A stretch of DNA of 56,301 nt from a virus (IMGVR_UViG_3300030061_002141:1-56301), one strand, 5' to 3'; positions 81 to 51,625 are shown, counted from the first letter of the stretch. The notes: a model not told the origin generated them from the sequence alone. Program-made: numbers and translations.

Positions 81-207
81 TGATCCTTGCTGATCCGCCG
101 TGATCCTTTACCCGGGATCCTTGCTGATCCTTAGTGAGGGATGCTGTTTGTTGTTGTGATCATCGTCATGATCAAGAGTCAAGGTTGTGGTCGGTTTTGA
201 TTTGATC
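81..207. repeat. GATC/TGATCC repeat array, candidate pac (packaging initiation) site
   Basis: GATC at 82, 92, 102, 116, 126, 158, 170 and 204; first three TGATCC are 10 bp apart; GATCCTTGCTGATCC duplicated at 82-96 and 116-130; overlaps and follows the 3' end of terS. Confidence 0.6.
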
Positions 208-642
208 AAGATACTTGGCCAGGTCGTCATCAGACATAGAGTCAAGGGTTGAGTGTTGTACTTCTTTCTTCTCCACCAAAAACCCCAACAGTTGAGACTT
301 CAACCTTATCGCGTTGACTGCTGCTGTATATTGTTTCTTGCTACAAGCATCAACATACAATTTATCTAGCTTTTCTACCTCTTTTGACACAGATTCACTG
401 GTCAAGCGCCTAGCATCACCACGCAATCTATCAATATACTGGATAATTTTATCTTTCTTTAAGTTGCGTGCAGCTTGAACGTGAGCAGAAGTTTCAGAGT
501 AACCTGCGTCAACAGCCGCTTGTTTCTTACCTTTTCCTTTAGCTATCTCCTCGCAGAACTTCTTTTCCATTGAGGATAAAGTCGCTTCGTTTGTCTGATG
601 TATTTGGTCTATAGTTATCGCCATATTTATCCAATATAGCAA
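172..642 (-). CDS. terS: Terminase small subunit
   Basis: N-terminal HTH pattern EKKFCEE...QAAVDAGYSETSAHVQAARNLK typical of TerS; would precede terL if the genome is circularly permuted; true start may be MAITID at 624. Confidence 0.85.
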   Translation of the reverse strand: MLYWINMAITIDQIHQTNEATLSSMEKKFCEEIAKGKGKKQAAVDAGYSETSAHVQAARNLKKDKIIQYIDRLRGDARRLTSESVSKEVEKLDKLYVDACSKKQYTAAVNAIRLKSQLLGFLVEKKEVQHSTLDSMSDDDLAKYLDQIKTDHNLDS

Positions 643-660
643 TTAATTTAGGAATGTAAA

Positions 661-933
661 TTAAGAATAATAAGGTCTATGTTTAGGAAAACTATCTGGT
701 GTACCACGATAATAAACATCACATTCTATTCCAAATTCTATAGAATTCCATTTATTACCAAATAATTTATTAAATAAACGACAAGCACGAAAAGCTTTCT
801 TAGGATCAGTAAATTTAATTTTACCTTCTTTAAGTCGTTCACCAGCGTTATAGTACCAACCACCTTCTTCGTGTCCGCCAAGTAATCTATCCGTTTTGTA
901 CACTGCTAGTTTCCAGAATTTTTCAACAGCCAT
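661..933 (-). CDS. Hypothetical phage protein (GGHEEGGW motif)
   Basis: ORF overlapping the upstream gene; GG.EEGGW.Y motif of the kind seen in small phage proteins. Confidence 0.6.
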   Translation of the reverse strand: MAVEKFWKLAVYKTDRLLGGHEEGGWYYNAGERLKEGKIKFTDPKKAFRACRLFNKLFGNKWNSIEFGIECDVYYRGTPDSFPKHRPYYS

Positions 934-1201
934 TATCCCTCGCTAGTTTAACTTGTGCGTCAACTCGATCAATATTTCTATCATCTTCTAATCTACGATG
1001 TCGATAAATTGAATCAATACGCTGTCTTGATTTAAGTCTTTTATCCTCATCGTTATCTAGACAAGCATGGGTTTCTTTTAGAAAATCACCTTCATAAAGT
1101 TGAAAGCCACCTCCGATATACTTAATATCAAAACCTCTATACTTATCCAATGGTACCTTCAATTCTCGCAGGAATAACTTTTTCATTATCGCACGTATCA
1201 C
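923..1201 (-). CDS. Hypothetical protein (true start probably near 1150)
   Basis: ORF track; the 5' part overlaps the Cys-rich ORF 1143-1298, so the start is likely downstream. Confidence 0.5.
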   Translation of the reverse strand: MIRAIMKKLFLRELKVPLDKYRGFDIKYIGGGFQLYEGDFLKETHACLDNDEDKRLKSRQRIDSIYRHRRLEDDRNIDRVDAQVKLARDNGC

Positions 1202-8034: not shown

Positions 8035-8056
8035 AGGGCCAACTTAATGGCCCTAT
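8033..8056 (-). promoter_or_regulatory. 9-bp hairpin overlapping the start codon of 7732-8034 (terminator or translational repressor)
   Basis: ATAGGGCCA-ACTTAA-TGGCCCTAT. Confidence 0.5.
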
Positions 8057-8063
8057 TATAACA

Positions 8064-8810
8064 TTATCGACCTAACATTCTACTTCTAGTTTGATTATTG
8101 ACTTGCGTATCAAGCCCTATTCCATTGCCTTTTTGCTTACCATTCTCATAAGCTGCTCTATCTCTTATGTTAAATGAAGACTTTTTAGAGACAACTCTTA
8201 CACCTTGATTACGAAGCCAATCTGAGATAGCTTTCTGCTCGTTTTTATAAAGCATAGGCAAACCATCTGGATTTTTTATACCTTCGTAAGGTGGAGCTAT
8301 CTCATTAAATCTTTCAGTAATACGTTTTTGCAAACGAGATGCGCAACCTAGTATAAATGCTCTCTTCATTTTATTAATAGCAGATTTACTTCCCGGGACT
8401 GTCTCAAATTCTTTATCCGCTAATCGTTTTACAGTATTGATAAAGTAATCGCACATTGATTTAGCAACTATTCTATTAGATTTTCTTCCAACGAATACAG
8501 CTTGATTAACACGCTTGTAATTACTATCAACACCTGACTTAGAGAAGTATTGACAAAAATATAATTTAGCAGTAGCTGATTGTATCCAACCTTGCCAATT
8601 ATCTCTTTCTGCGTCATATGTTTCTCTCTCGATTGGTTCTACTTGACTGTCGTCTTTAATATCTGATCGAGATAGATTATGTTCTGAAAGTAATTCTTGA
8701 GCTTTTTGAGCAGCAAGCATTGCTTCGTTTTCTGAAGCACCTTTATCTTCTGACATCTTTAAAAGCTTTTGAATACGTTTCAGTATGCTTTCTTTAACTT
8801 CTTCTGGCAT
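8064..8810 (-). CDS. DUF2786-domain protein
   Basis: ILKRIQKLL.MS...ASENEA.LAA.KAQELL..HNLS N-terminus is characteristic. Confidence 0.8.
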   Translation of the reverse strand: MPEEVKESILKRIQKLLKMSEDKGASENEAMLAAQKAQELLSEHNLSRSDIKDDSQVEPIERETYDAERDNWQGWIQSATAKLYFCQYFSKSGVDSNYKRVNQAVFVGRKSNRIVAKSMCDYFINTVKRLADKEFETVPGSKSAINKMKRAFILGCASRLQKRITERFNEIAPPYEGIKNPDGLPMLYKNEQKAISDWLRNQGVRVVSKKSSFNIRDRAAYENGKQKGNGIGLDTQVNNQTRSRMLGR

Positions 8811-8828
8811 ATTTCTCCTTTCTTGTTA

Positions 8829-8878
8829 GCAGGGCGGACAGAATCATCTTAACGACACTTTCTTACTTCAGGCCCTGC
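8829..8878 (-). promoter_or_regulatory. GC-rich stem upstream of an RBS
   Basis: GCAGGGC (8829-8835) and GCCCTGC (8872-8878). Confidence 0.4.
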
Positions 8879-8902
8879 GATTATTATTCTATATTTTTAT
8901 AA

Positions 8903-9730
8903 TTAGTTATTCGACAAAAAATTATCTATATAGTCAACTAAATTAATTTTAGGTTCAAAAGATAAAGTATTTACTATTTTTCCACTTTTAAATCTTTCAC
9001 CTTTTTGTGCTTTTATATACTTTATATTAGTTTTAAAAAGTTTAGCAACTTCAATTATTGAATAACTTTTTTTATTACCAATCATTATTTCTTTATTTGT
9101 TTTATTAGAGCTTTCTATTATACCTCTTACAATATCGTCAATATGAGTAAAATTTCTTCTCTGTGTACCAGGTTTTACTACAGTCAATGGTTGTTTATTT
9201 TTATACTGTTTTTCAAAGATACCAATAACAGTTGCCATTGCTCCAGATTTTATTTGTCTAGGTCCATAAACATTAAAGAAGTAAAGTATATTGTATTTTA
9301 AACCAAACCATTTAGAATAATTTTTAATCAAATTTAAATTATGATATTTAGAATAGGCATAAGGAGATAAGTTTTGTTTATTGTTTTGAATAGCAGATGA
9401 AGCTGAATAAATTAATTTTATTTTTCTTTCTGTACAAAACTTTATTACTTCAAGAGTTCCTTTTATATTAAAATCTAAGCAGTCTTTTGTGTTAATAAAA
9501 CTTTGATTAATTCTTGAAAATTCTCCAAAATGATAAACTAAATCAATCTTAATTTTTTTAAAATGTTTGTTAATATTTTCTGACTTATCATTTATATAAA
9601 GTGTTTTACTAAATTTAAAATTACCTGAAAATTGATTATCTAAGACAATTACATTATGTTTTTTATTTAGTTTATCAACTAAATGACTTCCGATAAAACC
9701 ACAACCACCTATGATTAAAATATTTTTCAA
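8903..9730 (-). CDS. NAD-dependent nucleotide-sugar epimerase/dehydratase (extended SDR)
   Basis: GGCGFIGSHL (GxxGxxG), YSASSA, YAYSK (YxxxK), FNVYGP and RNFTHIDD. Confidence 0.9.
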   Translation of the reverse strand: MKNILIIGGCGFIGSHLVDKLNKKHNVIVLDNQFSGNFKFSKTLYINDKSENINKHFKKIKIDLVYHFGEFSRINQSFINTKDCLDFNIKGTLEVIKFCTERKIKLIYSASSAIQNNKQNLSPYAYSKYHNLNLIKNYSKWFGLKYNILYFFNVYGPRQIKSGAMATVIGIFEKQYKNKQPLTVVKPGTQRRNFTHIDDIVRGIIESSNKTNKEIMIGNKKSYSIIEVAKLFKTNIKYIKAQKGERFKSGKIVNTLSFEPKINLVDYIDNFLSNN

Positions 9731-10119
9731 TTGTTTTCTAAATAATTATTAATGTTATCCCAATTTTTACAAATACTTATTTTTTCAAAATCTTCAAAAC
9801 TTACACCTTTAGCTAATTCTTCACCATTTTTTCCATAAAATAAATAAACATCTCTATCTTTTTTTACAAGTATAAATACTTTACCACCATAAAATTCGTA
9901 TGATTTATGCCAAGCTAATTGTTCAATGGATAAATTTACTTTAATTTTTGTCTTTCTTCTTTTAGGAGTTTTAACCCATTTACCTTCTATCCAACCACAA
10001 TGACCACCATAAGTAACATAATGAACATCAGGGATCCCTCGTTCTATTTGAGTTTCAACTCTTTGTATAAAAAAATTTTTAAGTTTTTTTCTGATCTGTG
10101 TCCAGAGTGTCTTTTCCAT
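9727..10119 (-). CDS. VRR-NUC / PD-(D/E)XK nuclease (resolvase-like)
   Basis: RVE...GIPD...WIEGK...LSIEQLAW. Confidence 0.8.
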   Translation of the reverse strand: MEKTLWTQIRKKLKNFFIQRVETQIERGIPDVHYVTYGGHCGWIEGKWVKTPKRRKTKIKVNLSIEQLAWHKSYEFYGGKVFILVKKDRDVYLFYGKNGEELAKGVSFEDFEKISICKNWDNINNYLENN

Positions 10120-10855
10120 CGAATTTACATACAGGGATTGGTTTCATCTTATGTAAATTCTTCTTTCTTATTGCAAGATATTTATCATAGCCAACTTCAT
10201 CTGGTCTAGACATTAGATGTTCTATTTCTTTATAACTCATACCTAATTGATCTGTATCAGTTCTACCATCTGACCATAATCCATCAGTCGGTTCTGCCAT
10301 TTGTATTTCTTCTAATATACCTAATTCTTTACCCATAGCCCATACTTGAGTTTTAGTACAATCAGCAATAGGAGATATATCCACACCGCCATCGCCATAC
10401 TTTGTATAAAAACCTACACCAAAGTCTTCAATCTTATTACCAGTTCCAACTACTATTCCACTTGTACTTGCAGATATTTGATATAAAGTCATCATTCTTA
10501 ATCTAGCTTTAGAATTTGCAAACCCTAAACTTTCTGTAAATTTTTTATCAGTCATAGAATTTTCAAAAGAAAGATATGTTCCTGTTAAATCTATTTCTAC
10601 ACCATAAGCATTTTGATATTTACTTGTTAGCCATTCTTTATGTTTAATAGATAAGTCATGATGCTCGGGTCTTTGAGATATTGGCATGGAAGCTACGAGT
10701 GTTTTTATTCCAGTACGTGCACATAATGTAGAAACTACTGATGAATCAATTCCACCAGAAACTCCTACAACTAAACAATTAGCTGGACTATCCATACTCT
10801 CAACATAGTCTTTTATCCAATCGGTTATTATCTTTACTCTGTCTTTTGCTTCCAT
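10079..10855 (-). CDS. nadE: NH3-dependent NAD+ synthetase family (PP-loop amide ligase)
   Basis: VGVSGGIDSS, NSKARLRM, GTGNKIED, YTKYGDGGVDISPIAD and PTDGLW. Confidence 0.9.
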   Translation of the reverse strand: MEAKDRVKIITDWIKDYVESMDSPANCLVVGVSGGIDSSVVSTLCARTGIKTLVASMPISQRPEHHDLSIKHKEWLTSKYQNAYGVEIDLTGTYLSFENSMTDKKFTESLGFANSKARLRMMTLYQISASTSGIVVGTGNKIEDFGVGFYTKYGDGGVDISPIADCTKTQVWAMGKELGILEEIQMAEPTDGLWSDGRTDTDQLGMSYKEIEHLMSRPDEVGYDKYLAIRKKNLHKMKPIPVCKFDGKDTLDTDQKKT

Positions 10856-12105
10856 GTATTGTCTCCAATAGGAATATATTTAACATCATTTCCAAGTTTA
10901 AGATACCTAAATGGATCGATGATTACTGAATTAGGATAAAAATAAAAATCTTTAAATGCTTCGTGTTTAGTACCAATAAAAAATAATTGTGGTTTAGTTT
11001 CCCATTCCATTTCTTTAGCAACATCTTTAGAGTCAACATATGGATCCCAAATTTTAACTCTTTCTCCTCTTTCTTCTAAAATATTTTTAAGTAATATTGA
11101 TGGACTTCCTAATTGTAAATTAGTTTCAGGTTTAAAACATTTACCTAAAATATTAATATCCATTTCAAATTTTTCTGTAATAATTAAATCAGCTAACCAA
11201 TCAGTTTGTTTTTCTCTTTGAGCCATGATACCATCGTACCAATTATAAGAAAGATTTAATTTATCAGCAAGATAACTCAAAGCAATGTTATCCCGGGGAT
11301 GACAACCTCCTCCATCTCCCATTCCACCATATAAATATTTATCACTTATTAATCTTTTATCGCATAAAGCAAATGCTCTACTGATATCGTCAATATTAGT
11401 ATTAGGTAAATTATGACATGTTTCCATTAAAGTATTAATCATAGCGATTTTAGTTGAGATAAAAGTATTATAACCAACTTTTATTAATTCAGCATTTTCT
11501 ATCGTAGTATCAAAGAATGGAGCATTATTAATTGTTTTATAAAACTCTTTTGCTTTATTAAGAGCTTCTTTATCATCTACACCAAATAGATTTATTTCTG
11601 CTCCTAAGAAATCGTCAATAGTTGTTCCCATTGCAATAAAATAAGGATTATAACAAAGCTTTAAATGAGTACCAAGAATTGGTTTAATAAATCTTGAAAT
11701 AGTACCAGGCAAGACAGTAGAAATAATAACAACGACTTTATCTTTACCTTGTTTTTCGATTTCATTATTTAAATCTGTTATTCCTTTTACTAAATATTCA
11801 TAATTAAAATCTTTTCTTTCTTTAGGTACTCTATGTATACCTTCATACTTTTTATCGTGAGGAGTTTGAATAGGAACAAAAATTATATCAGAATCAGAAA
11901 CTATTTGCTCTATATTTTTTATTTTAATTTTAGAATTATTTAGTAGTTCTTGAGCACCTTTTTCTTTATAATTGAGTGTCTTAAATCTAATATTTCTTAA
12001 AGTTGTTTCATTTATATCTGTACCAAAAACATTATGTCCTTTACTTTCAACAGCTAGAGCTACAGGTAAACCTAGTTTTCCTAGTCCTAAAAATCCGATA
12101 TTCAT
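10834..12105 (-). CDS. UDP-glucose/GDP-mannose 6-dehydrogenase family
   Basis: GLGKLG Rossmann motif, AELIKVGYN, catalytic GGGCHPRD and FKPET. Confidence 0.9.
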   Translation of the reverse strand: MNIGFLGLGKLGLPVALAVESKGHNVFGTDINETTLRNIRFKTLNYKEKGAQELLNNSKIKIKNIEQIVSDSDIIFVPIQTPHDKKYEGIHRVPKERKDFNYEYLVKGITDLNNEIEKQGKDKVVVIISTVLPGTISRFIKPILGTHLKLCYNPYFIAMGTTIDDFLGAEINLFGVDDKEALNKAKEFYKTINNAPFFDTTIENAELIKVGYNTFISTKIAMINTLMETCHNLPNTNIDDISRAFALCDKRLISDKYLYGGMGDGGGCHPRDNIALSYLADKLNLSYNWYDGIMAQREKQTDWLADLIITEKFEMDINILGKCFKPETNLQLGSPSILLKNILEERGERVKIWDPYVDSKDVAKEMEWETKPQLFFIGTKHEAFKDFYFYPNSVIIDPFRYLKLGNDVKYIPIGDNTWKQKTE

Positions 12106-39118: not shown

Positions 39119-39688
39119 CTAAGTTTTAATAATATATATTACTGTTAAATAAGGTTGTACAACAGATGTTGCATCACCAGAAAAGTTTGCACTCATGTTG
39201 TGTGAGTGACCAGAACCTGAACCAGTGTTATTTGAGTTTTTAGTACCGCCAACTCCTCCACCTGAACTAAGCCTACTATTTAAATAAGGTGCGGAATCTC
39301 CCGATGTAAAACCGTGACTATGAGATGCAAGTTGCGATGTTGATAATGTTGCATTAGCTGTTGAACCAGAAATATTTCCAGTAGAAGTAACTGTGTTTGC
39401 TCCACCAGTTGACGCTAAAGCTTTGTTATTAGATTTTCCAACTGCTACATTGTCAGCTAAATTTGGTACATTAAAAGTGCTTGAGCCGTCACCAACACCA
39501 TAAGTTGTACCGACAATTGCAAATAAAGCTGAGTAAGTTGATCTTGAAACTGCTGCACCATCACATTCTAAAAATCCAGATGGAACAGATGCAGATGTCC
39601 ATGGCACGATAGTTGCTGTAGGAATACCTTCGATACCTGTAAGGTTTGCTCCTGAAAAATCGTATTTAGTTGCTTCGTAATTTGACAT
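39119..39688 (-). CDS. Short tail fiber with phage tail-collar domain
   Basis: P.GFLECDG.AVSRSTY.ALFA.VGT.YG.GDGSSTFN.P, H.H motifs and QPYL...YIIK. Confidence 0.88.
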   Translation of the reverse strand: MSNYEATKYDFSGANLTGIEGIPTATIVPWTSASVPSGFLECDGAAVSRSTYSALFAIVGTTYGVGDGSSTFNVPNLADNVAVGKSNNKALASTGGANTVTSTGNISGSTANATLSTSQLASHSHGFTSGDSAPYLNSRLSSGGGVGGTKNSNNTGSGSGHSHNMSANFSGDATSVVQPYLTVIYIIKT

Positions 39689-39689
39689 A

Positions 39690-40388: not shown

Positions 40389-40446
40389 AATTTTTTATAT
40401 TATAAATTTATTATTATGTAAATAATATATATTTGTTGTCATTTGT

Positions 40447-41280
40447 CTAGTGAATATTAGTCCAAGTTTCAGTATTTGTTGGTAATATTGGATCCCAAAA
40501 TTTAAGGGTAGAAGCTGAAATATTAGCTTGATTACCAGTAATAGAAAGAAAGTTTTGAGTTGTAGTATTTACATTAGCTAAAGTAATATCTAATTGTTGA
40601 CCAGTTATAGATATATTATTAACTGTTTGTAGACTAATTGTATTTACTGTTACATTAATTTGATTACCAGTAATTGTTAAAAAGTTTTCTGATTTAGGAA
40701 CAATTGATGCTAAAGAAATAGTTGATTGTTGACCATCAACATCTATAAAATTAGCAGTTCCTGGTGTAACACTATTTACTTCTACATTTGCTTCTAAAGT
40801 AGGTGTGTTAATAGTTATGGAACCTCCAGCAACTACTGCAAAAGTATTAACAGTTGCAGTAACTAAATCCTCACCTGTAATAGTTACTAAAGCTAAACTT
40901 TCAGTTGTAACATTTCCTTGACTTAAAGAAAGTGAATTTCCTGTAATAGTTGCTAAACCATTTGCTAATACTGATGTATTATTAATACTTGCTGAAAGAC
41001 TTTGACCATCTTCTACAAATATAGTTCCACTACCAGAAACTATATCTCCAATTGGATTTCCCCAGATACCTTCTCCCCATGCTTCTCTACCCCAACCTTG
41101 ACCTAAGTTAATACTTGCAAGAGATTGTATACCTGTAATACTTACAATATTTCCAAGACCAAGACTAAAAGAAAAAGTTCCTGTGCTTCCAGTTAATCCT
41201 ATACCTGTAATAGCAGCACCAGATACTGAGTTACCCCAAGTACCTAAACTCCAATCACCTTGGCCCCATGTGCTCGCCAT
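40447..41280 (-). CDS. Tail structural protein with WG repeats
   Basis: WG.G.W repeats and ITG repeats; S/T-rich. Confidence 0.6.
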   Translation of the reverse strand: MASTWGQGDWSLGTWGNSVSGAAITGIGLTGSTGTFSFSLGLGNIVSITGIQSLASINLGQGWGREAWGEGIWGNPIGDIVSGSGTIFVEDGQSLSASINNTSVLANGLATITGNSLSLSQGNVTTESLALVTITGEDLVTATVNTFAVVAGGSITINTPTLEANVEVNSVTPGTANFIDVDGQQSTISLASIVPKSENFLTITGNQINVTVNTISLQTVNNISITGQQLDITLANVNTTTQNFLSITGNQANISASTLKFWDPILPTNTETWTNIH

Positions 41281-41293
41281 AAGGATTGTCTCC

Positions 41294-41719
41294 TTATGCT
41301 ATTCTAATTAAGCCGTTACTTGCGTCAGCGTTTGGAAACTGTAATTCGAATGTACCATTAGTAGATGTTTTAACACCACCAAAATCTAATACTGCAATAG
41401 ATGAATTACTATTATTAGCATTGTAAATTAGTGCAGCTTGTGCAGAAATTGTTGCATTAGCAAATGAAACATTATCAGCATCAAAAATTGCTGTAGTTCC
41501 ATCTGTAGAAATTGCAACATTAGTTAATGTAGCACCGCCGGTTGTGTAGTTTGTTCCACTGCTTGATATTTCATTTGCTGTTGTATACGCAGTTGTGTTT
41601 TGATTTAAAGTTGCAGTGTTGTCGTAAAGTGCACACTTCAATGTTAGAGCCTCTAAGTTTCCTCCAGGCGACATTAAGTCTTGCTTAAATGCAACAGTAA
41701 TCGCTTGTGATATAGCCAT
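41294..41719 (-). CDS. Virion structural protein
   Basis: K.ALY, Y..GG.TL and VLDFGG.KTS. Confidence 0.65.
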   Translation of the reverse strand: MAISQAITVAFKQDLMSPGGNLEALTLKCALYDNTATLNQNTTAYTTANEISSSGTNYTTGGATLTNVAISTDGTTAIFDADNVSFANATISAQAALIYNANNSNSSIAVLDFGGVKTSTNGTFELQFPNADASNGLIRIA

Positions 41720-41721
41720 TT

Positions 41722-42381
41722 TTATTGTCCTCCAGTTAATGTATTTTCGCCTAGTGGACTACCAGGAAACTTATAGTCAGTTCTTCTGTTTCTACGAGCT
41801 TCATTATTGATAGCAGCCACACTTTCGACATACTTTTGTTTATATATATTATAGTCTTCCATGTTTTTTGTAAAGAGATTTGCTTCAGATAAACAGCCAT
41901 ATAAAAGAGCATCGGGAACATTTTCAGTATACCAATTAGTTGTATTAGTATTAGACAATGGATTAATTCTACCTTGATAACCTAATTCTATTGTATAAAC
42001 AGCATCCGGAGTAGGTGCTATATATAATGTATTATCATCAAAATTAGAAAAATATCTTGGTGTAGATGTAATAGAAGCATTTGGCCAATACTCTTGTACA
42101 TATTCTAATGGTTTTATTTCTAAAAATTGTCTTTCATTATTAACTAATATGTTAACATAATTTAATAACATTGGTTCTATTGCTGACGGTAAAGTAATAA
42201 ATCTATCACCTATACTGGTATTAGATTGAACATTTTGATTAAAACCTGTAGGATCGATTTCTCTAGATAATTTAGTTTGAGTATTATCAATAAATGTATC
42301 TAATTGAGAATTAAAATCTGTTCCAGTATTTTCAGCCCAGGTTTGTATATCAGTCTTTAGACTGCTGTATGTCATTGGCAT
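41722..42381 (-). CDS. Head-tail adaptor protein
   Basis: APTPD..Y and PDALLYG.L.EA motifs. Confidence 0.7.
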   Translation of the reverse strand: MPMTYSSLKTDIQTWAENTGTDFNSQLDTFIDNTQTKLSREIDPTGFNQNVQSNTSIGDRFITLPSAIEPMLLNYVNILVNNERQFLEIKPLEYVQEYWPNASITSTPRYFSNFDDNTLYIAPTPDAVYTIELGYQGRINPLSNTNTTNWYTENVPDALLYGCLSEANLFTKNMEDYNIYKQKYVESVAAINNEARRNRRTDYKFPGSPLGENTLTGGQ

Positions 42382-43168
42382 TTTTATCTGCTCCTTCTAC
42401 ATTAAATTTATTCCACACATTACCTCTAAATGGATAAGTTCCATAATGAGTTAATGGGCTAATAACATCAGCGAAGATTTTACCACCTATTTTTTGCCAT
42501 AATCTACAAAAAGCATAATCTTCTGATAGATATCTATTACTTTTTTCATCAATAATACAGTCAAAAAATGCAAAACAATTATTACTAGAAAACCTTTCAT
42601 TATTAATTATTTGATCGCTTGTATATTTTAAATTAGGATATGCTTCTTTCATTTTATCAAAAACTTCTTTTTTTATACACATAAAACCTGTTGCAGCATC
42701 TAAAACTTCTGTAAAACCATTTTTTACAGAAATACTTAATGGCTCTGCAAAATTAAGATTATAGCCAAGAGCTTTTGATTCTAAATCTTTTTCACCAGTT
42801 TCTTTTACAAATTTTGGTACTGATTTCCAATCAATAGATTTTCTAGGATATATTCCTGCACATACATCATGACCTGATTCAACAAGTCTAATAACATTTT
42901 CTGCACTAAAACCTATATCGCTATCAATAAATAACAAGTGAGTAAATTTATTAGGATCTTTTTCACTGTAATCTAAAAATTGTGTTACTAAAGTATTCCT
43001 AGCTCTTGTAATTAAACTTTCATTACCCATTGTATTTAAATGAACTTGAATACCTTTTTGTTGTGCTTTTACAGTTGTACTTAAAATTCCATGTAGATAT
43101 GCTTCTGTAAGTTGACCGCCATAACAAGGTGTTGCGATCATAACACCATATTTTTTTTCTATATTCAT
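42350..43168 (-). CDS. GT-A fold glycosyltransferase
   Basis: IATPCY, SLITRARN, LFIDSDI (DxD), TGFM.I and SEDYAFC. Confidence 0.85.
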   Translation of the reverse strand: MNIEKKYGVMIATPCYGGQLTEAYLHGILSTTVKAQQKGIQVHLNTMGNESLITRARNTLVTQFLDYSEKDPNKFTHLLFIDSDIGFSAENVIRLVESGHDVCAGIYPRKSIDWKSVPKFVKETGEKDLESKALGYNLNFAEPLSISVKNGFTEVLDAATGFMCIKKEVFDKMKEAYPNLKYTSDQIINNERFSSNNCFAFFDCIIDEKSNRYLSEDYAFCRLWQKIGGKIFADVISPLTHYGTYPFRGNVWNKFNVEGADKNANDIQQSKD

Positions 43169-43551
43169 GATGTTACTACTGTAACACTTCCTAGATCAGT
43201 TGATAACAAATTTGTGCTTGCTTGTGCTATACCTACTGCTGGTATAGAACCTGTTGATGGAAACAATGTGTTTATTTGATCTGGTACACCTCCAGTAGAT
43301 GATAAATTAGCTTGTGGTCTAGCGTCTTGTAAAGACTGAGCATCAGTAAAATACATCAAATCTAATTGTGGTTGTTTTGGTTCAAATTCTGAATTATGTA
43401 CAAATGAACCATTCCATTCAAATACCATTTCTTGATATGGAAATTCTAACCCTGATCTATCTGATATAGCTCTTGCATACTGACCACCTGAAAATTTATT
43501 ATGTGGTGCTCTATGAGGTCTTGTACTTCTATCACCTAATTTATTTGCCAT
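43165..43551 (-). CDS. Conserved neck-region protein
   Basis: AISDRSG.EFPY.EM..EWNG...EPKQPQL. Confidence 0.6.
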   Translation of the reverse strand: MANKLGDRSTRPHRAPHNKFSGGQYARAISDRSGLEFPYQEMVFEWNGSFVHNSEFEPKQPQLDLMYFTDAQSLQDARPQANLSSTGGVPDQINTLFPSTGSIPAVGIAQASTNLLSTDLGSVTVVTS

Positions 43552-44240
43552 TATGTATAAAATCTATTAGTAGATGATGGTAATATTCTTGTAGAAGGTG
43601 TATCATCACCAGCAACTAATCTTGTATAAGCTTGTTCGTAATCTGTTTTTAATTCCATTCTTTGAGCTTGATCTATATTTACTCTTTTCTTAGATAAATA
43701 ATAAGCAAGTCCTGCACACATACATTCAAAAGCTCTAAATGGAATATCAAAATTTTGTTGTACACCATCGACTGTAGAGGCTGTAACATCTTGAATTTTT
43801 CTCATTCTGTAATATCTTAAAGTATAAGTTTGATCTGGCGCTGGATATATTTTTATTACAGGTGTATTTAATCTTTGTAAATAAAATTGAGTTGGTCTTG
43901 ATTGCTGAGTTTTATTAGATATTGCAGCATAGTCATTTAAACCTAATCTAGTCATAGAATACTCTGTACCAGCTGAATCTACTATATTAGCATTTATAAT
44001 ATCTACTAAATCATAATCTAAAGTATAATCTGTAGTGCCTTGTGATACAGTTTCATCTTTTAATTCGACAGTCCATTGATTGTAACCTCTGTTTGCCCAA
44101 TCACTGAACATAATATTTAAACTTCTACGCGCAGAACGCACGTCATAACCTAAAATAGGATCGCCTCCTATTCTATCAAATGCTTCTTGAATACAGTCGT
44201 TGACTGTAAGATTAAAAGTTGCTGTATTTGATGTAGCCAT
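43551..44240 (-). CDS. Head-tail connector / neck protein
   Basis: SARRSLN.MF..W.NRG and AGLAYYL. Confidence 0.7.
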   Translation of the reverse strand: MATSNTATFNLTVNDCIQEAFDRIGGDPILGYDVRSARRSLNIMFSDWANRGYNQWTVELKDETVSQGTTDYTLDYDLVDIINANIVDSAGTEYSMTRLGLNDYAAISNKTQQSRPTQFYLQRLNTPVIKIYPAPDQTYTLRYYRMRKIQDVTASTVDGVQQNFDIPFRAFECMCAGLAYYLSKKRVNIDQAQRMELKTDYEQAYTRLVAGDDTPSTRILPSSTNRFYT

Positions 44241-44530
44241 TAAGCAAAAAATACTGTTACGCCACTAGCACCGTTTGCAGAAATATTAATTTTTAAGTTA
44301 GTCTCAAATTTTACACCTTCATCTGGTAAACTTATATTAATAGGTCCACTATCTGCACTAGCACCTGTTGTTACTACAAATTTTGTTGTAGCATCATCTA
44401 CAAAAGTTACAGTTCCAGCAGTTGCCGATGGCGTAATAATAAAACCTTTAAGTCTTGTAGGGCCACTAAAAGCTGCAACATTCGAACCTGTAGTTGTTAC
44501 ACTATTTGCTGATATATCTGATCCTGCCAT
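44240..44530 (-). CDS. Small virion structural protein
   Basis: G/A/S/T-rich beta protein in the structural operon. Confidence 0.55.
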   Translation of the reverse strand: MAGSDISANSVTTTGSNVAAFSGPTRLKGFIITPSATAGTVTFVDDATTKFVVTTGASADSGPINISLPDEGVKFETNLKINISANGASGVTVFFA

Positions 44531-44539
44531 TTTTTTCTC

Positions 44540-45031
44540 CTATATTAAATTTTGTTTTTTTAAACCTTCTATTAGTAACGCAATTCTGTCGCCTTGGCTA
44601 GTTGGTTGTTGTAAATAAGGTGCAACAAAATTTTTACCTGCTTGAGCTCTAAAATCTATTGCTTTATTTAATTCAAATGGTTTTTCTTTAAAAGGTGATT
44701 GAGGTGGACTACCTAAACTTTTAGAAGAACCAAAAGAAGAAATAACTTTTTCGATATCTTTAAGTTTTTCATCTAATCCTTTTTCTTTTTTTTCTGCTTT
44801 TTCAGCTTCTTCTTTTCTTAAAACATCTTTTATAGTTTCCATCTCTCCGATGTCTTCTGTTTTAGCTAATTCTTTTTGTTCTTCTGTAGGTTTATAATCT
44901 TCTTGAGCTTCAAAAATTTTAACTGCTTTATCTACAATTGCTTCTGTTTCTTTTTTTTCTTCATCTTTATCTTCTTTTTCATCGAAGATACTTTTTAAAG
45001 CATTTCCTTTTTCTCTTAAAAATTCTAACAT
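44540..45031 (-). CDS. Hypothetical E/K-rich protein
   Basis: ORF with AGGAGAAAA RBS. Confidence 0.6.
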   Translation of the reverse strand: MLEFLREKGNALKSIFDEKEDKDEEKKETEAIVDKAVKIFEAQEDYKPTEEQKELAKTEDIGEMETIKDVLRKEEAEKAEKKEKGLDEKLKDIEKVISSFGSSKSLGSPPQSPFKEKPFELNKAIDFRAQAGKNFVAPYLQQPTSQGDRIALLIEGLKKQNLI

Positions 45032-45046
45032 ATTTTCTCCTAATAA

Positions 45047-45068
45047 GGAGGACCCATTAGGGTCCCCC
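45047..45068 (-). terminator. Probable intrinsic terminator or attenuator
   Basis: Minus strand GGGGGACCC-TAAT-GGGTCCTCC followed by TTATT. Confidence 0.6.
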
Positions 45069-45077
45069 TAAAAAGTA

Positions 45078-45554
45078 TTATGCTGGAACGTCTCCCGCAT
45101 CTGCAATTGAATTGTTTTGCATATACATAACAGTTACAGTTGCATTACCAGTTGTTCCATCACCATCAGTACCAGTAAAGTCAGCTAAAACTTGAATATC
45201 AGTTGTACCAATATTTGTTGCTTCAGTATCTAAAGTACCTCTAGTAGTTCCTAATGATTTTACACTTGTAGATGGAATAAAAGCATTACCATCATCTGCT
45301 GTTCCAACAATAACTGTTGCAGCATTAGAATCATTATTAACAGTTGTAACATTTAATACAACATCTACTATTTGTGAATTAGCAGGAATAGTCCCACAAA
45401 CTTGATTTAAGTGAGAAGCTCCTGTTATATCAATCTTTGCAGATTGAGCCATAACAACGAAACCTGTATTAGCAACATTTGCTCCTAATGTAGTTCCTGA
45501 AGTTTCTCTAATCGTTCCCGCTTTTATCGGTCCCGAAAAAGTAGTTGTTCCCAT
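45078..45554 (-). CDS. Capsid decoration / minor capsid protein
   Basis: MGTTTFSGPIKAG start; directly after the major capsid gene. Confidence 0.6.
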   Translation of the reverse strand: MGTTTFSGPIKAGTIRETSGTTLGANVANTGFVVMAQSAKIDITGASHLNQVCGTIPANSQIVDVVLNVTTVNNDSNAATVIVGTADDGNAFIPSTSVKSLGTTRGTLDTEATNIGTTDIQVLADFTGTDGDGTTGNATVTVMYMQNNSIADAGDVPA

Positions 45555-45593
45555 AGTCTACCTCCTTAGTAGTCAGCATAAGCTGTCGTAGGG

Positions 45594-45621
45594 TAACTAG
45601 GCGTATTTCTACGCCTAGTTA
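45594..45621 (-). promoter_or_regulatory. Perfect 12-bp hairpin with GAAA tetraloop after the major capsid gene
   Basis: Minus strand TAACTAGGCGTA-GAAA-TACGCCTAGTTA; no U-tract follows. Confidence 0.65.
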
Positions 45622-45630
45622 AGTTTATTA

Positions 45631-46542
45631 TTAATCTGCGCCTTGAGATCCGTAAACGGCTCTCCAGTCAGTGAAACCAAAAGAGTATCTTTCTCTTACT
45701 TTGTATCTTAGATTACCAGTTTCAAAATCACCTTCAACAGCTTTTTTGATTGGTGCTCTAACAAAGTGTTTCATTCCATCAGGGCAATCAGTCATAATAA
45801 AGTATTGGTCCGTGTCAGTTAGTCTTTGGTTAACGACTACTCCGCCCGGGATCATACCCATATTTCTCATTGCATTAATGTCATTGTCTGCAGTTCCTGG
45901 TCTTAAATTAGACTTAAGGATTCTTTCAGCTATGAACACTAAATTTGGTGGAACGATCAGTTTCTGACCTGTTAAAGCGATAGGTATACTTCTATCATCT
46001 TTAGCTTCTGAGATTTGTACTAAAAGTGTCTCTAAAGACGTTTCAGATAAATCAGCAGGTGTTGCTAAAATGTTAGATGCAGTACCGCCGCCACCTAGAG
46101 GGTGTGAAGCATTCAATAAAGTTACTCCGTCACCACCTAATTGTGCAGTGTTAGTTGCATTGTTTAAGATGTTTGCACCTTTGATTTCTTTAGTGTGTTG
46201 CATTGATCTTGCTAAAGCTCTAGCATACTTTGCACCTAAAGATCCGTATAAACCATCTTCTTCTGCTTCCTCAGTAATTGAGAATGCTAAAGCGATTGTT
46301 TCATGTACGTATCTTGATACAAATCCTTCTCTGCCAGATTCATAAGATATTGCAGCACCTTCAGCTTTTGTTGGTGCAGCTCCGAAGCCGATCATTTGTA
46401 CATCTTCTTCGAAAGCTTTTTGCGATTGCTCTGTAGAATAGATTTCTCTCCATTGTTCAGGATATCTATCATATTCCATACCAAACACGGTGTTCAAACC
46501 TAGATTGAGCTGTTTGGTAAAAAGTGCTCTATTTAAAGCCAT
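45631..46542 (-). CDS. Major capsid protein
   Basis: 303 aa; ETIALAFSITEEA.ED.LY, GGDG..L...HP and DF.TGN.RYK.RERYSFG..DWR. Confidence 0.9.
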   Translation of the reverse strand: MALNRALFTKQLNLGLNTVFGMEYDRYPEQWREIYSTEQSQKAFEEDVQMIGFGAAPTKAEGAAISYESGREGFVSRYVHETIALAFSITEEAEEDGLYGSLGAKYARALARSMQHTKEIKGANILNNATNTAQLGGDGVTLLNASHPLGGGGTASNILATPADLSETSLETLLVQISEAKDDRSIPIALTGQKLIVPPNLVFIAERILKSNLRPGTADNDINAMRNMGMIPGGVVVNQRLTDTDQYFIMTDCPDGMKHFVRAPIKKAVEGDFETGNLRYKVRERYSFGFTDWRAVYGSQGAD

Positions 46543-48561: not shown

Positions 48562-48600
48562 AGTTGTCTCCTATGTTGTCGTTAGGTTTTCTAACGTATA

Positions 48601-48969
48601 TTATAATTGATGAGCTATTACTTCAGGGTTTTCTAATGTAGCAATAACCTCATCGTCATTAATTAACACCATTTTGACATTCTGTACAGAAATTTTAGCA
48701 CCCGCATATCTTCCGAATACGACCCAATCTCCAACTTTACACCAAGGTGCTTTTCTATCGCTATAGCACTCTGGTCCTAAAGCAATAACTTGTCCTACAG
48801 AATTTAAATAACTTTGTTGTTCTTTATTTGTATCAGTTAAATAAATTCCTCCTTTTGTTTTTTCAACAACACCTCTAGGTCTAATTAGAATTCTATAACC
48901 TACTGGTTGTGGTATTTTTTCTGGTGTAGGCACATCATTATCAGTTGCCCATATTTCTTGACTAATCAT
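48601..48969 (-). CDS. groES: GroES-like co-chaperonin
   Basis: P.GYRILIRP...KTKGGI.L...G.V.A.GP...KVGDWV.F.RYAG. Confidence 0.88.
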   Translation of the reverse strand: MISQEIWATDNDVPTPEKIPQPVGYRILIRPRGVVEKTKGGIYLTDTNKEQQSYLNSVGQVIALGPECYSDRKAPWCKVGDWVVFGRYAGAKISVQNVKMVLINDDEVIATLENPEVIAHQL

Positions 48970-49159
48970 CTATATCTCCTTCCTTGTATTTTTGAGTAGT
49001 TTCATCAATTATTTCTAATGCTTTATTTAATCCTTCTGATATTCCTTGTATTTTTTTAAAGTCTTCAATTTTATCTACACTTCTAGACAACAAATTTTTA
49101 CCTAAATCTGTGTCATATTCTTTAATCTTCTTTTTTATTGCTATTACTAATCTTTCCAT
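48962..49159 (-). CDS. Hypothetical head-module protein
   Basis: Coupled ORF between portal and groES. Confidence 0.6.
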   Translation of the reverse strand: MERLVIAIKKKIKEYDTDLGKNLLSRSVDKIEDFKKIQGISEGLNKALEIIDETTQKYKEGDIDD

Positions 49160-49316
49160 TTACTTCTTTCATAATTACATTAAGCAATTTTTCAAAGTTA
49201 ACATTTGCTTTATGAGCAACTTGAGCAAATATTCTTGGCTTAACTGTTTTAATTGATAATTTTTTATTTTCTAAAAACTTTTTAGCTTTTCTAATTTCTT
49301 CAGGTTTAACTGCCAT
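49122..49316 (-). CDS. Hypothetical protein
   Basis: Coupled to the portal stop codon. Confidence 0.55.
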   Translation of the reverse strand: MAVKPEEIRKAKKFLENKKLSIKTVKPRIFAQVAHKANVNFEKLLNVIMKEVNGKISNSNKKED

Positions 49317-51625
49317 TAATCACTGCTTCTTGCAACTCTAGAAGCTGTTTCAACTATCTTAGCTTTAGTTTCAGCATCTTTTCTAGCTTGCGTTCTTTCC
49401 TTATCTTTTACTCCTTCAGCAAATCTAGCTTTTCTTATATTAAGCTCTTCTGCTTTTAATTGTAAACTAGCTTGGTCTTTTGCCATTTCCATTTGTTGTT
49501 TTTGTTGTTCTGGATTTGGTGGCATACTTCCCATTAAACCTTGTGCTGCTTGTGCAGCTGCAACAGCAATTCTATTTTCTTGTTCTACTGAAACTTCAGT
49601 AGTATCTTCATCTCTTAATTCTTTATTAATTTCTCCTGAAGATGTAGGAACACCTTGAGGTACTTGAGCTTGCATTTGTTGTTGATATAAATAAGCCATG
49701 TGTTGGCCTAAGTGAGCCATCATTAATGGATATAAAACTTCTTTAGCTTGTGGATTACCACCAAATCTAGGATCCATCATAAACTGTTGGTGTACTGCAA
49801 TATGAGCTTGATGATCTTGATCTTCAAAAACTTTAATTGGTTTACCATTTAATAAAGCCATATTTTCAGAAACTGGATCTCGTCTAGGTGTTTCTTCATC
49901 TTCAATAATTAAATCTTGATAATCAGGTATATTTAAAGATTGTAAAAATCTTCTGTAAGCTTCTTTAGTATCAATAATATTTGGTGCTTGTTGTGCTAAT
50001 TGTAATCCTGTTTGAGCTAATGCAATTCTTTGAGCTTGAGAAAATATATTAGGATCAGATACAGGTACTACATTAACTGCATCATTAAAATCTTTTCTTC
50101 TAATAGTTTTTCTTTCACCTATAACATCATAAGGATATTCATCATCTAAATATTCTCCATTTAATTCGTATATTAATTTAAATTCTCTACCTTGAGCTTG
50201 ATGTAATCTTTTATGAATTGCAGAAAATACTTTTGAACCTTGTTCTATTAAAGCAATTGTAGTACCTACTGGACCAGAACCTGCAGATTGACCTACCATA
50301 GCATCTGCTATACTTGCAAAACGTCTCCCTGACTCAGTTAAAACACCTAACAATTGAAGTAGTGTAGGCGATGGTTCTTTGAAAGGAAGAGGGATAAAAC
50401 TCTTTCGCAGATCATCACCATATGCTTCGACATCGACCCATTCACCAGGTGAGACTGTAATATCTCCACCTTCTATTCTAGCTCCTTTGGCTTTGAATCC
50501 ACCATTGAGATTAGCAAAGGCAGCTGAATCTAATAAAGCACGAAGTGCTCCTGTACTAGCGTGTTGCAAACCGCCGATCATTTGTATAAGGCCAAAGCCA
50601 TAGAAGCCTAAGCCAGGAAGATATTTATAGTGTATAAAATAAGTTCTTTTTCTTTTTAATGGATCGTCTTCTTTCCAGTTTCTTCTTATTGCTAAAGTTT
50701 GACCTGATTCATAATCTACCGTTACAATATAAGGAAGAGCTAAACCTGATTCATCTTCTCCTAAATCTAAATCTGCATGTATTTCTAATACAGTATGAAT
50801 TTTATCTGACATAGAAGTTGACATACCTTCTAATTTTTGCATTGTTGATTCTACTAAATCAGAAGAGTTTTGACCTCCTTGATTTTGAGTTATTGGAACA
50901 TCTCTATAAAATCCTTCTACTTGTCTTCTTTTAATTTCATTAGTTGTAAGTTTCATTACTTGAGTATATCGTTCTGCAGTTTCTAAATCTGTATTTTCAT
51001 ATGAAATAACAAACTGATCTGCTGGTACAAATTTTGAACAAATTCTATCTAAAGAATTATCAAAATATATTTTCTTAAATGCTGAACCTGCTAAAGCTAA
51101 ATAAAATAACATTTGATCAAGTTCATTAAAATAATCTGTTATTTGATTAGTAACTTGATAATTCATAAAATCTTGAACACGTTGAGCTTGCTCTATTTTT
51201 TTATCAGATTGTTTTCCAACTATTTGTGTTTTAACAGGACCACCTGCTGGAAACATTTCCGCAATAGCTCTTGCTTGAAATTGAGTTGCTGCTTCTGACA
51301 TTAATGGATGATGAACACCTGAAGCTCCCGGGAAAGGATCTTGTCTATCTTCGACAACTACTCCTAACATTTTCAAACCTTTAGAATATTGATCTTCCCA
51401 ATCTTTTCTAGAAGCTTTATCATCTTCGTATGCTTTAATTAAAGATTTACCAATACCTAAAACTTCTTGATTATCTAATTCTTCTGCTAAGTTAGCATAA
51501 TGATTTGATTCAAAAGCTTCTTCTTCTTTTTCTGTTAAATCTTGGTCTACATCTACACGAACCTTTTGTCCGTCTTCATTTGTATATTCTAATTTTTTTT
51601 TATCAAGTTTTACTTCTAATGCCAT
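49316..51625 (-). CDS. Portal protein
   Basis: 769 aa; PFPGASGV.HP, F.HY..LPGLGFYG.GL and VSDPNIFS; position between terL and the head genes. Confidence 0.9.
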   Translation of the reverse strand: MALEVKLDKKKLEYTNEDGQKVRVDVDQDLTEKEEEAFESNHYANLAEELDNQEVLGIGKSLIKAYEDDKASRKDWEDQYSKGLKMLGVVVEDRQDPFPGASGVHHPLMSEAATQFQARAIAEMFPAGGPVKTQIVGKQSDKKIEQAQRVQDFMNYQVTNQITDYFNELDQMLFYLALAGSAFKKIYFDNSLDRICSKFVPADQFVISYENTDLETAERYTQVMKLTTNEIKRRQVEGFYRDVPITQNQGGQNSSDLVESTMQKLEGMSTSMSDKIHTVLEIHADLDLGEDESGLALPYIVTVDYESGQTLAIRRNWKEDDPLKRKRTYFIHYKYLPGLGFYGFGLIQMIGGLQHASTGALRALLDSAAFANLNGGFKAKGARIEGGDITVSPGEWVDVEAYGDDLRKSFIPLPFKEPSPTLLQLLGVLTESGRRFASIADAMVGQSAGSGPVGTTIALIEQGSKVFSAIHKRLHQAQGREFKLIYELNGEYLDDEYPYDVIGERKTIRRKDFNDAVNVVPVSDPNIFSQAQRIALAQTGLQLAQQAPNIIDTKEAYRRFLQSLNIPDYQDLIIEDEETPRRDPVSENMALLNGKPIKVFEDQDHQAHIAVHQQFMMDPRFGGNPQAKEVLYPLMMAHLGQHMAYLYQQQMQAQVPQGVPTSSGEINKELRDEDTTEVSVEQENRIAVAAAQAAQGLMGSMPPNPEQQKQQMEMAKDQASLQLKAEELNIRKARFAEGVKDKERTQARKDAETKAKIVETASRVARSSD

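Follow-up and report, generated by a model that had tools for sequence, protein, structure and literature searches.

The closest described counterparts of the element treated here are the highly iterated palindromes (HIPs) of cyanobacteria, namely, HIP1 (GCGATCGC) and the alternate HIPs GGCGCC, GCsGC, and rCCGGy (Elhai 2015, PMC4390886; Xu, Lawrence and Durand 2018, PMC5861425). In the available text of Elhai 2015 (PMC4390886), the core of HIP1 and of the alternate HIPs is recognized by an orphan methyltransferase (MTase), one-off variants deviate at the outer bases, and rCCGGy is over-represented together with a cognate 5-methylcytosine (m5C) MTase (DmtD), with the argument that over-representation need not mean function; a functionless methyl-directed repair bias is put forward for HIPs. 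Xu et al. 2018 (PMC5861425) argue for selection with periodic spacing, and not for biased repair, in the case of HIP1. Here we describe the palindrome CCCGGG in IMGVR_UViG_3300030061_002141, a single linear contig of viral origin from IMG/VR, 56,301 bp long, with about 30% G+C and a completeness of about 91% by CheckV; "the window" means this whole stretch of DNA. We propose, with a probability of roughly 0.4, that CCCGGG, with a preference for the extended TCCCGGGA, represents a HIP-like palindrome in a phage, that selection at the DNA level favors dispersed sites, and that a divergent C5 cytosine MTase encoded by the phage is their likeliest reader.

The phage word shares with HIPs a GC-rich palindrome of 6 to 8 bases, a more than ten-fold excess, its construction within coding sequence by codon choice, an orphan MTase in the genome, a division into core and flanks, with one-off variants mainly in the outer positions, and nonrandom spacing. 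The order-of-magnitude excess, codon-made sites in open reading frames (ORFs; 9 of 10), and outer-position deviations by which HIPs are recognized are all found here. The cyanobacterial debate between biased repair and selection, as far as the available parts of both papers present it, extends to the phage, and rCCGGy has the same CCGG core. In contrast to HIPs, the host of the signal is a 56-kb phage and not a cyanobacterium, the putative host genus lacks the signal, the phage has ten sites where cyanobacteria have up to one per gene, its MTase is part of a module of the hypermodification type, and close relatives allow the build-up to be traced for each site. Our literature search returned no description of such an over-represented palindrome signal in a phage, including HIP1 in combination with cyanophages.

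Phage gene clusters of a C5-MTase, a 5-methylpyrimidine dioxygenase, and a glycosyltransferase hypermodify cytosine only at the MTase motif (Burke et al. 2021, PMC8256090; 10.1101/2023.12.21.572611). The window resembles these clusters in having a C5-MTase near a GT-B enzyme similar to the T4 beta-glucosyltransferase (BGT), and protection seems to be word-limited in both. It differs from them in that their MTases, where the papers characterize them, prefer GpC, a dinucleotide that CCCGGG does not contain, and motif enrichment is not reported in the available parts of the two papers. A further difference is the dioxygenase, since a search of the record for the TET/JBP family (PF12851) gave 0 candidates; the 2-oxoglutarate (2OG) oxygenases in the record belong to PF13640 and lie 17 kb from the MTase gene.

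The T4 pathway, which makes hydroxymethylcytosine before replication, consists of gp42, gp1, gp56, cd, and beta-gt and, to our knowledge, T4 has no C5-MTase. Judged by similarity, the window may encode the corresponding set, with a ThyA homologue of the cytosine type, an NMP-kinase-like protein, an all-alpha NTP pyrophosphatase, a dCMP deaminase, and a BGT-like glycosyltransferase. Unlike in the window, however, global replacement of cytosine would remove the need for strong restriction-site avoidance. In Escherichia coli, Dcm and the very-short-patch repair by Vsr shape CCWGG-related words, so that a C5-MTase site and its neighbors become over-represented. The phage differs from this system in that its genome has no Vsr, and the changes that created the sites comprise transversions and also affect bases beyond any one methylated position.

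Excess and codon context of the CCCGGG sites

The window contains exactly 10 CCCGGG sites (Table 1), the same ten that were listed in a preliminary description of the sequence. Less than one site had been expected there, and dinucleotide-preserving shuffles agree, with a mean of 0.29, a maximum of 3, and 0 of 100 shuffles reaching 10. The base composition assumed for this estimate, about 15% each for C and G, is in fact 17.9% C and 12.8% G on the plus strand, which leaves the outcome unaffected. The codon-aware null that the preliminary description had named as a check gives the same answer, as 0 of 800 shuffles reach 10 when protein and codon usage are kept. For this null, we used simple ORF calls of our own (93 ORFs, 54,126 coding bases). 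Synonymous-codon shuffles within genes and from the genome pool yield means of 1.21 and 1.12, with the fixed intergenic site included, and maxima of 3 and 4 (z of 20 to 25). The coding sites alone amount to 9, compared to about 0.2 expected under the codon- and protein-preserving null, and the overall excess is 14- to 34-fold (10 observed versus 0.29 to 0.73 expected).

Relative to base composition, CCCGGG ranks first in over-representation among the 4096 hexamers. Among the 64 palindromic hexamers it alone is enriched relative to the codon null, with TTTAAA coming next (z of 2.2 to 2.7), and a similar enrichment of other GC hexamers is not seen, the other GC-only palindromes having 0 to 1 occurrences each. 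Beyond the full sites, there are exactly three CCSGG words, at 5974, 7189, and 18923, as had been estimated. Contigs from other sequencing runs are identical over 8044 to 8954 and 21754 to 22710, so the sites at 8392 and 21824 are not assembly artefacts; for the sites at 8392, 11292, 21824, and 26104, conservation in the other runs was read only from contigs that match without difference.

Nine sites lie in genes, all of them in minus-strand ORFs, and one is intergenic. The codon examples that had been quoted for the use of rare GC-ending codons are all correct. Seven sites read xxC-CCG-GGx (GTC three times, CTC, ACC, ATC, and TTC), one reads CCC-GGG, and one reads CCC-CGG-G. Pro-Gly is encoded at 8 of the 9 coding sites, and CCCGGG occupies 8 of the 40 Pro-Gly dipeptides of the proteome. 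A rare C-ending codon precedes CCG in all 7 CCG-GGx cases, these codons making up 1 to 10% of their families. The rarity is evident from the codon counts of CCG (33 of 615 Pro), CCC (11 of 615 Pro), GGG (22 of 1145 Gly), GTC (58 of 989 Val), CTC (19 of 1408 Leu), and CGG (7 of 776 Arg). The flanks of the ten sites are unrelated to one another, and the full 8-base TCCCGGGA is present at 5 of the 10. CCWGG avoidance as a driver was ruled out, as all 32 non-site Pro-Gly dipeptides are still CCT/CCA-GGN.

The suggestion that the motif is selected for or mutationally protected is borne out in so far as the motif is actively favored, beyond chance and codon usage. Its second part is not supported for protection of the Vsr type, because a search of the whole record (about 91% complete) for Vsr (PF03852) gave 0 candidates and some of the sites needed transversions.

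Independent gain of sites in the clade

Relatives were compared in 80 capsid-anchored, 37 MTase-anchored, 80 terS-anchored, and 80 helicase-anchored IMG/VR loci, which are referred to by L numbers. At the orthologous positions, most relatives keep Pro-Gly in common codons (CCT/CCA-GGN, such as CCTGGA and CCAGGT), indicating that the sites arose by two or three synonymous changes. The sites at 16692 and 51327 are shared most widely, with 20 of 33 and 15 of 30 aligned loci, respectively, followed by those at 26104 (3 of 15), 21824 (4 of 31, the closest relatives), 45845 (6 of 80, with the intermediates CCCGGA, in 5, and CCAGGG), 11292 (1 of 22), and 27633 (0 of 8); no relative aligned at 33501. 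The first two are therefore old sites, whereas the remaining ones occur in the nearest relatives or in none. The site at 8392 is common to L120 and L143 only, and the other relatives have GTA/GTT CCT/CCA GGT/GGC, from which three synonymous changes are needed. Most relatives read CCT AGA at 11292, where the change to CCC CGG requires a transversion.

Site density increases steadily the closer a relative is to the window in nucleotide identity, from 0.27 per 10 kb in the 70 to 75% class to 1.78 per 10 kb in the 90 to 95% class, and among the records counted in full the window is the densest. Five long relatives (30 to 52 kb) hold 4, 4, 2, 2, and 1 CCCGGG and 0 copies of the control word GGGCCC. 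Across the clade, 127 site instances reduce to 22 distinct positions at which the site was gained independently, nearly all at X-Pro-Gly. Twelve of these positions have no site in the window, as other lineages gained theirs at Pro-Gly dipeptides that lack one here. An extra CCCGGG at Tyr-Pro-Gly is seen in 15 terS-side loci of relatives; given its position beside terS, it probably falls in the part of terL that is absent from the record. A hand count of one-off variants in relatives gave 14 locus instances at 6 sites in which the core is kept (CCCGGH) and 6 instances at 3 sites in which it is broken, these instances not being phylogenetically independent.

Extended palindrome, spacing, and retention

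Counted free of orientation, T at position -1 or A at position +1 accompanies 29 of 44 half-sites, compared to 20 of 64 at non-site Pro-Gly dipeptides (p 0.0004), and the full TCCCGGGA is reached at 8 of the 22 clade positions, so the extended palindrome is preferred. The third base of the Gly codon is free at 8392 and 21824, where the window has GGA and relatives have GGT or GGC. This preference for A suggests a unit that extends beyond the CCGG or CCCGGG of a methylation site.

The sites occur about once per 5.6 kb and are more evenly placed than by chance, with a coefficient of variation of 0.50 for their gaps, compared to 0.88 under a uniform null (p 0.020) and 0.80 under a null constrained to Pro-Gly (p 0.024). 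Ten sites are too few to reveal a periodic distribution. The largest gap, from 33501 to 45845, contains a segment of about 3 kb of tail genes (37066 to 40099) with 82.5% identity to Pelagibacter phage HTVC027P, the only near match in cultured phages, which has 0 CCCGGG in its first 50 kb. The similarity is a sign of recent exchange, and such a gap would be expected in newly acquired DNA if sites build up over time.

Close relatives retain the motif's rare codons more often than other rare codons, with 15 of 15 versus a fraction of 0.74 at 90 to 95% identity, 27 of 36 versus 0.60 at 85 to 90%, and 42 of 68 versus 0.47 at 80 to 85%.

A candidate reader in a cytosine-modification module

The MTase belongs to a six-gene module on the minus strand (13962 to 18322), consisting of the dCMP deaminase, the ThyA homologue, the NMP-kinase-like protein, the GT-B enzyme, the MazG-like protein, and the MTase. 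The module forms a unit in the window's clade and in a sister clade, whose MTase is 57% identical, and is absent from more distant relatives. Taken together, the six genes resemble a pathway for cytosine hypermodification, carried here by a podovirus of the pelagiphage-like type. Among the helicase-anchored loci with a match of at least 65% identity, 1 of 24 is without the MTase, namely, L217, which ends at the helicase gene.

The MTase matches PF00145 with 99.9 bits (cutoff of 22) over profile positions 10 to 323 of 324. By this Pfam match, it is a candidate C5 cytosine DNA methylase. The catalytic PPC at residues 70 to 72 is invariant in the subfamily, and so are the motifs FAGGF, PPCA, ESV, SRKR, and QIARGV. 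Canonical C5-MTases have FxGxG in motif I, ENV in motif VI, and GN in motif X. The MTase deviates from all three with FAGGF, ESV, and ARG, and the deviant forms are conserved in the subfamily, for which no cultured phage was found carrying the MTase. The 151-residue ORF that overlaps the MTase gene was considered as a Vsr and turned out to be MazG-like.

The glycosyltransferase-like protein has no Pfam family at an E value of 0.01 or better, and a profile of 38 homologues found no BGT chain in the PDB; its ESM Atlas neighbors carry PF09198. The AlphaFold model has a predicted local distance difference test (pLDDT) score of 91, and T4 BGT takes ranks 1 to 3 of the Foldseek PDB matches (template modeling [TM] scores of 0.54 to 0.57), with six T4 BGT entries within the top 18 (TM scores of 0.49 to 0.57). 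The modeled fold is thus closest to T4 BGT, and the protein is a putative glucosyltransferase that may act on DNA. Full-length homologues with 29 to 30% identity are encoded by Aeromonas phages, among them Aes012 and phage 25, which we take to be T4-type myoviruses.

The best PDB match for the ThyA homologue is the CMP 5-hydroxymethylase MilA (E value of 2e-23), whereas thymidylate synthases follow at 6.7e-9 or worse; T4 gp42 is not among the matches listed. The homologue has PYD aligned to the PFN of thymidylate synthases, in which the Asn is the uracil-selecting residue, and Asp takes its place. From these comparisons, the enzyme is predicted to be of the cytosine-nucleotide type, and it resembles (d)CMP hydroxymethylases more than it does thymidylate synthases. 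A survey of HTVC023P-type pelagiphages mentions thymidine-type hypermodification genes and, in its available text, no methyltransferase; we found no paper on a pelagiphage hydroxymethylase.

Table 1. CCCGGG sites, module genes, and terminase-side features of the window, ordered by position
Feature	Positions	Strand	Gene or context	Codons or matches
TGATCC/GGATCC repeat array	75-137		Between terS and truncated terL	
CCCGGG, sole noncoding copy	111-116		Inside TGATCC repeat array	
Small terminase subunit (terS)	172-642	-		phrog_51 and phrog_641
CCCGGG (TCCCGGGA)	8392-8397		DUF2786/DUF7168 gene	GTC CCG GGA (V-P-G)
CCCGGG	11292-11297		UDP-glucose dehydrogenase gene	CCC CGG G (P-R-D)
dCMP deaminase	13962-14462	-		PF00383, E value of 6.5e-20
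ThyA-superfamily enzyme, predicted cytosine type (hydroxymethylase-like)	14419-15255	-		PDB match MilA
P-loop (d)NMP-kinase-like protein	15255-15812	-		Pfam thymidylate kinase N-terminus, E value of 6e-7; phrog_761
GT-B glycosyltransferase resembling T4 BGT	15788-16834	-	348 residues	Model fold
CCCGGG (TCCCGGGA), oldest site	16692-16697		Glucosyltransferase-like gene	GTC CCG GGA
MazG/HisE-like nucleotide pyrophosphohydrolase	16809-17264	-	151 residues; overlaps MTase stop	PF01503, E value of 5e-12; phrog_671
Divergent C5 cytosine DNA MTase, candidate reader/writer of the motif	17264-18322	-		PF00145, E value of 2.5e-28, full-length match
CCCGGG (TCCCGGGA)	21824-21829		Archaeo-eukaryotic primase (AEP) gene	CTC CCG GGA
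CCCGGG (TCCCGGGA)	26104-26109		129-residue gene product (phrog_2524)	GTC CCG GGA
CCCGGG	27633-27638		Structural gene, 1099 residues	CCC GGG (A-P-G)
CCCGGG	33501-33506		Virion structural gene (phrog_3287)	ACC CCG GGA
CCCGGG	45845-45850		Major capsid gene	ATC CCG GGC
CCCGGG (TCCCGGGA), old site	51327-51332		Portal gene	TTC CCG GGA
Large terminase (terL), C-terminal nuclease domain	55321-56301		ORF runs off right end	

Restriction-site landscape and other carriers of the methyltransferase

In the relatives without the module (L227 to L275; 49 loci, 920 kb), CCGG occurs 52 times versus 929 to 1071 expected and is missing from 39 of the 49 loci, GGCC occurs 58 times versus 1236, AGGCCT 0 times versus 163, and CCCGGG 0 times versus 37. 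The near-absence of both tetranucleotides implies widespread CCGG- and GGCC-specific restriction in the hosts. Module-bearing clades tolerate CCGG (observed/expected ratios of 0.62 and 0.43) and GGCC, and they still avoid many other C-containing palindromes. The window's clade has CGCG once versus 51 expected (18 loci), AGATCT 0 times versus 141, and CTTAAG 3 times versus 160. Relative to the codon null, the window itself has AGATCT 0 times versus about 22, AGTACT 0 versus 14, ACTAGT 1 versus 10 to 11, AACGTT 2 versus 12, and CTTAAG 1 versus 6. None of the 37 MTase loci (598 kb in total) contains AGATCT, a word that is not avoided in the sister clade or in HTVC027P. Since CCGG and GGCC are tolerated and other C-containing palindromes are avoided, protection looks word-specific and not global, which leaves room for MTase action and argues against a T4-style total replacement of cytosine.

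The CCGG flank skew is confined to the window's clade, where CCCGGG makes up 36 of 152 CCGG sites. The preliminary description had proposed that enrichment might track the MTase in related genomes. This holds to the extent that the excess is restricted to phages with the cytosine-modification module, but the sister clade, several members of the clade itself, and 26 of 29 distant carriers are without it. A link between CCCGGG and the MTase, for which the tolerance of CCGG and one distant carrier, L334, give indirect support, is plausible but unproven.

The distant carriers of the MTase subfamily comprise 29 nonredundant loci from unrelated, mostly GC-rich phages, with MTases that are 29 to 41% identical. 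Overall, CCCGGG is found 180 times versus 254 expected, which is a 30-locus total before one duplicate was dropped. In L334 (59% G+C, MTase 32% identical), CCCGGG is the top palindrome, with 25 copies in 21 kb versus 5 to 6.4 expected, and the sites are dispersed and lie in all three reading frames. L285 and L321 keep an excess of GCCGGC under a second-order background. The GCCGGC excess in GC-rich carriers was discounted, as it is seen in 7 loci under a first-order and only 2 under a second-order background and is confounded by preferred GCC-GGC codons. The L285 contig is mirror-image, with the same GCCGGC gaps in both directions, and is probably an inverted-duplication assembly artefact; its unique half has 6 GCCGGC in about 4.4 kb at 40% G+C.

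Selection, biased repair, or another reader

Selection for dispersed sites is favored over biased repair by the preference at the free flank, the even spacing, and the multiple changes, including transversions, toward the rarest codons, as well as by the finding that most other MTase carriers have no excess.

Several observations weigh against selection for the sites or against the MTase as their reader. The oldest site, at 16692, is polymorphic, with A at 16697 (CCCGGA) in the dominant contigs of all 4 independent runs compared, indicating that sites turn over. A linked patch of differences, at 16697 and 16718 to 16745, is seen in the same dominant contigs. Below 80% identity, the motif codons are kept less than other rare codons (71 of 259 versus 0.35), which is expected if the gains are recent, and single sites are not strongly constrained. 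The statistics on spacing and flanks are modest, being drawn from 10 sites and 22 non-independent clusters. The sister clade has the whole module and 0 CCCGGG in 125 to 130 kb, and a test for a different enriched palindrome found none there. The first part of the recognition region of its MTase is 30 to 38% identical, so this enzyme may have another specificity and the sister clade neither supports nor refutes the link. Within the clade, L084, L085, and L095 (MTase 86 to 89% identical) have 0 CCCGGG in 15 to 21 kb, and CCGG itself is missing altogether from L095 and L096. Only 3 of the 29 distant carriers keep any CCGG-core excess under a second-order background, and 26 have none. The effect on the motif is inseparable from the other five module genes, and a global replacement of cytosine before replication by the ThyA-like route would leave the C5-MTase without a substrate. 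The target of the MTase could not be read from homologues either, as their names are generic and the PDB matches are limited to the catalytic core. Finally, a scan of 40 of the about 93 ORFs with Pfam and of 6 more with PHROGs only gave no candidate reader apart from the MTase.

The best-surviving alternative, a serious competitor though somewhat unlikely, is a functionless by-product, in which the MTase methylates the CCGG core and methylation-linked biased repair, following the model of Elhai or resembling very-short-patch repair, creates or extends the sites. An MTase is present in every genome with an excess, and gradual accumulation and site turnover would fit such a process. The predominance of core-keeping over core-broken variants is the pattern that Elhai 2015 gives for HIP1, and the rCCGGy case in the available text of that paper likewise requires no function. 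The process is harder to reconcile with the transversions and the three changes needed at some sites, with the preference for A at the free third position of Gly, with a spacing more even than random Pro-Gly placement, and with the sister clade and most distant MTase carriers, which have no excess. It also lacks the repair enzyme, as there is no Vsr homologue and no other nuclease turned up in the ORFs scanned. For HIP1 itself, the argument of Xu et al. 2018 is for selection and not for biased repair.

The sites could instead be bound or cut by a dimeric phage protein unrelated to the MTase, serving genome organization, recombination-dependent replication, or packaging, with the MTase irrelevant or protective; we consider this unlikely. 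An 8-base palindrome and even spacing would suit a homodimer, 14 of 20 small ORFs have no Pfam match at an E value of 0.01 or better, and enrichment does not simply follow the presence of the MTase. However, no helix-turn-helix protein, nuclease, or other DNA-binding family was seen in the ORFs scanned, the MTase is the only sequence-specific DNA enzyme identified, and the copy in the terS-side array is unconserved, leaving no link to packaging.

A signal at the level of translation, either a rare-codon pause at X-Pro-Gly or C-CCG-GGA as a slippery heptamer (X-XXY-YYZ) for -1 frameshifting, is very improbable. All genic sites are on the sense strand, and 7 of the 9 coding sites are in the xxC-CCG-GGN frame, formally X-XXY-YYZ, but this frame bias is accounted for by codon rarity, as CCC (11) and GGG (22) are used even less than CCG (33). 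Three of the ten sites are in other frames or noncoding, the word is enriched in all three frames in L334, G/C-only slippery sites are poor shifters, and capsid, portal, primase, and sugar-metabolism genes share no need for frameshift products. Mimicry of a genome-wide host signal such as a Chi-like or uptake-type word, for which GC-rich short dispersed words are typical, is rejected for the putative host genus and hardly credible, as 31 genomes of this genus have 3 to 19 CCCGGG per 0.5 to 1 Mb, compared to 6 to 19 for the reversed control word, although the host assignment is itself weak.

CCCGGG arose at conserved Pro-Gly dipeptides through two or three synonymous changes to rare codons and accumulated stepwise in one lineage. 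If it is a selected phage signal of the HIP kind, as we propose, selection would act on the number and spread of the sites and not on any single one. The reader would be a sequence-specific phage factor, and the most plausible candidate is the module's divergent C5-MTase acting on the CCGG core. The glucosyltransferase-like enzyme might act next, so that each site would become a symmetric cluster of modified cytosines. As a guess, the marks could serve for self-marking or as a roadblock for a processive nuclease. Taken to its end, TCCCGGGA would be an evolved landing pad for the phage's own modification machinery, where methylated and perhaps glycosylated clusters about 5 kb apart label self DNA and give Chi-like stop signals or protection against a processive nuclease, which degrades host DNA with its ten to twenty times fewer, unmodified sites. 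We regard this full scenario as a long shot.

Phage, putative host, and terminase-side array

A metagenome-assembled genome (MAG) of Candidatus Pelagibacter includes a contig with an 89% identical capsid gene, and this binning, together with the tail-gene similarity to HTVC027P, points weakly to SAR11 as the probable host. The phage is present in marine metagenomes from many studies and represents an uncultured, podovirus-like lineage that probably infects SAR11. The density of CCCGGG is about 0.1 per 10 kb in the 31 genomes of the MAG's genus, compared to 1.8 in the phage, and the avoidance of AGATCT is also absent in these genomes. The signal belongs to the phage and not to the putative host genus. 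One MAG contig (C18 of G001) has three CCCGGG within 8.6 kb and may be another binned phage contig of the clade.

Almost all genes of the phage are on the minus strand. A plus-strand block at 35093 to 38755 encodes three PF13640 2OG-Fe(II) oxygenases and a carbamoyltransferase, and sugar-nucleotide genes at 8903 to 12105 encode an epimerase/dehydratase, an NAD-synthase-like amidotransferase, and a UDP-glucose dehydrogenase. Both groups might be involved in tailoring a DNA-linked or surface glycan.

The ORF at the right end corresponds to the C-terminal nuclease domain of the large terminase, indicating that the record ends inside terL. The noncoding CCCGGG was described as lying in a putative pac array and indeed lies inside the TGATCC array, but a special role there is not supported, as 0 of 41 aligned relatives carry CCCGGG at this place and in the closest of them, L120, one base at the site is different from the window. 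The array is conserved downstream of terS in relatives without CCCGGG and is thus independent of the motif, and a pac-site role of this copy was rejected. In the loci L119 to L198, the array consists of TGATCC/GGATCC boxes 10 to 24 bp apart, with a central dyad, GATCCTAGGATC, in many relatives; its sequence makes a terminase recognition region plausible.

Significance

Phages generally avoid short palindromes. The phage of the window avoids many of them as well, yet it accumulates CCCGGG at the rarest codons in its capsid, portal, primase, and further conserved genes, which is the opposite pattern and points to a genome-wide DNA signal. HIP1 has been unexplained for decades. Here, a signal of this kind is found in 56 kb with only 10 sites, and close relatives reveal in which order these were gained. 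The candidate MTase is amenable to cloning, which would make the choice between repair by-product and selected function more directly testable. The finding furthermore draws attention to a widespread, uncultured lineage of marine phages in which a C5-MTase occurs together with T4-like genes for cytosine modification. If the sites were indeed landing pads for the modification machinery, the phage would hold an epigenetic self-marking code in its codon choice and would provide a small, tractable model for HIP sequences.

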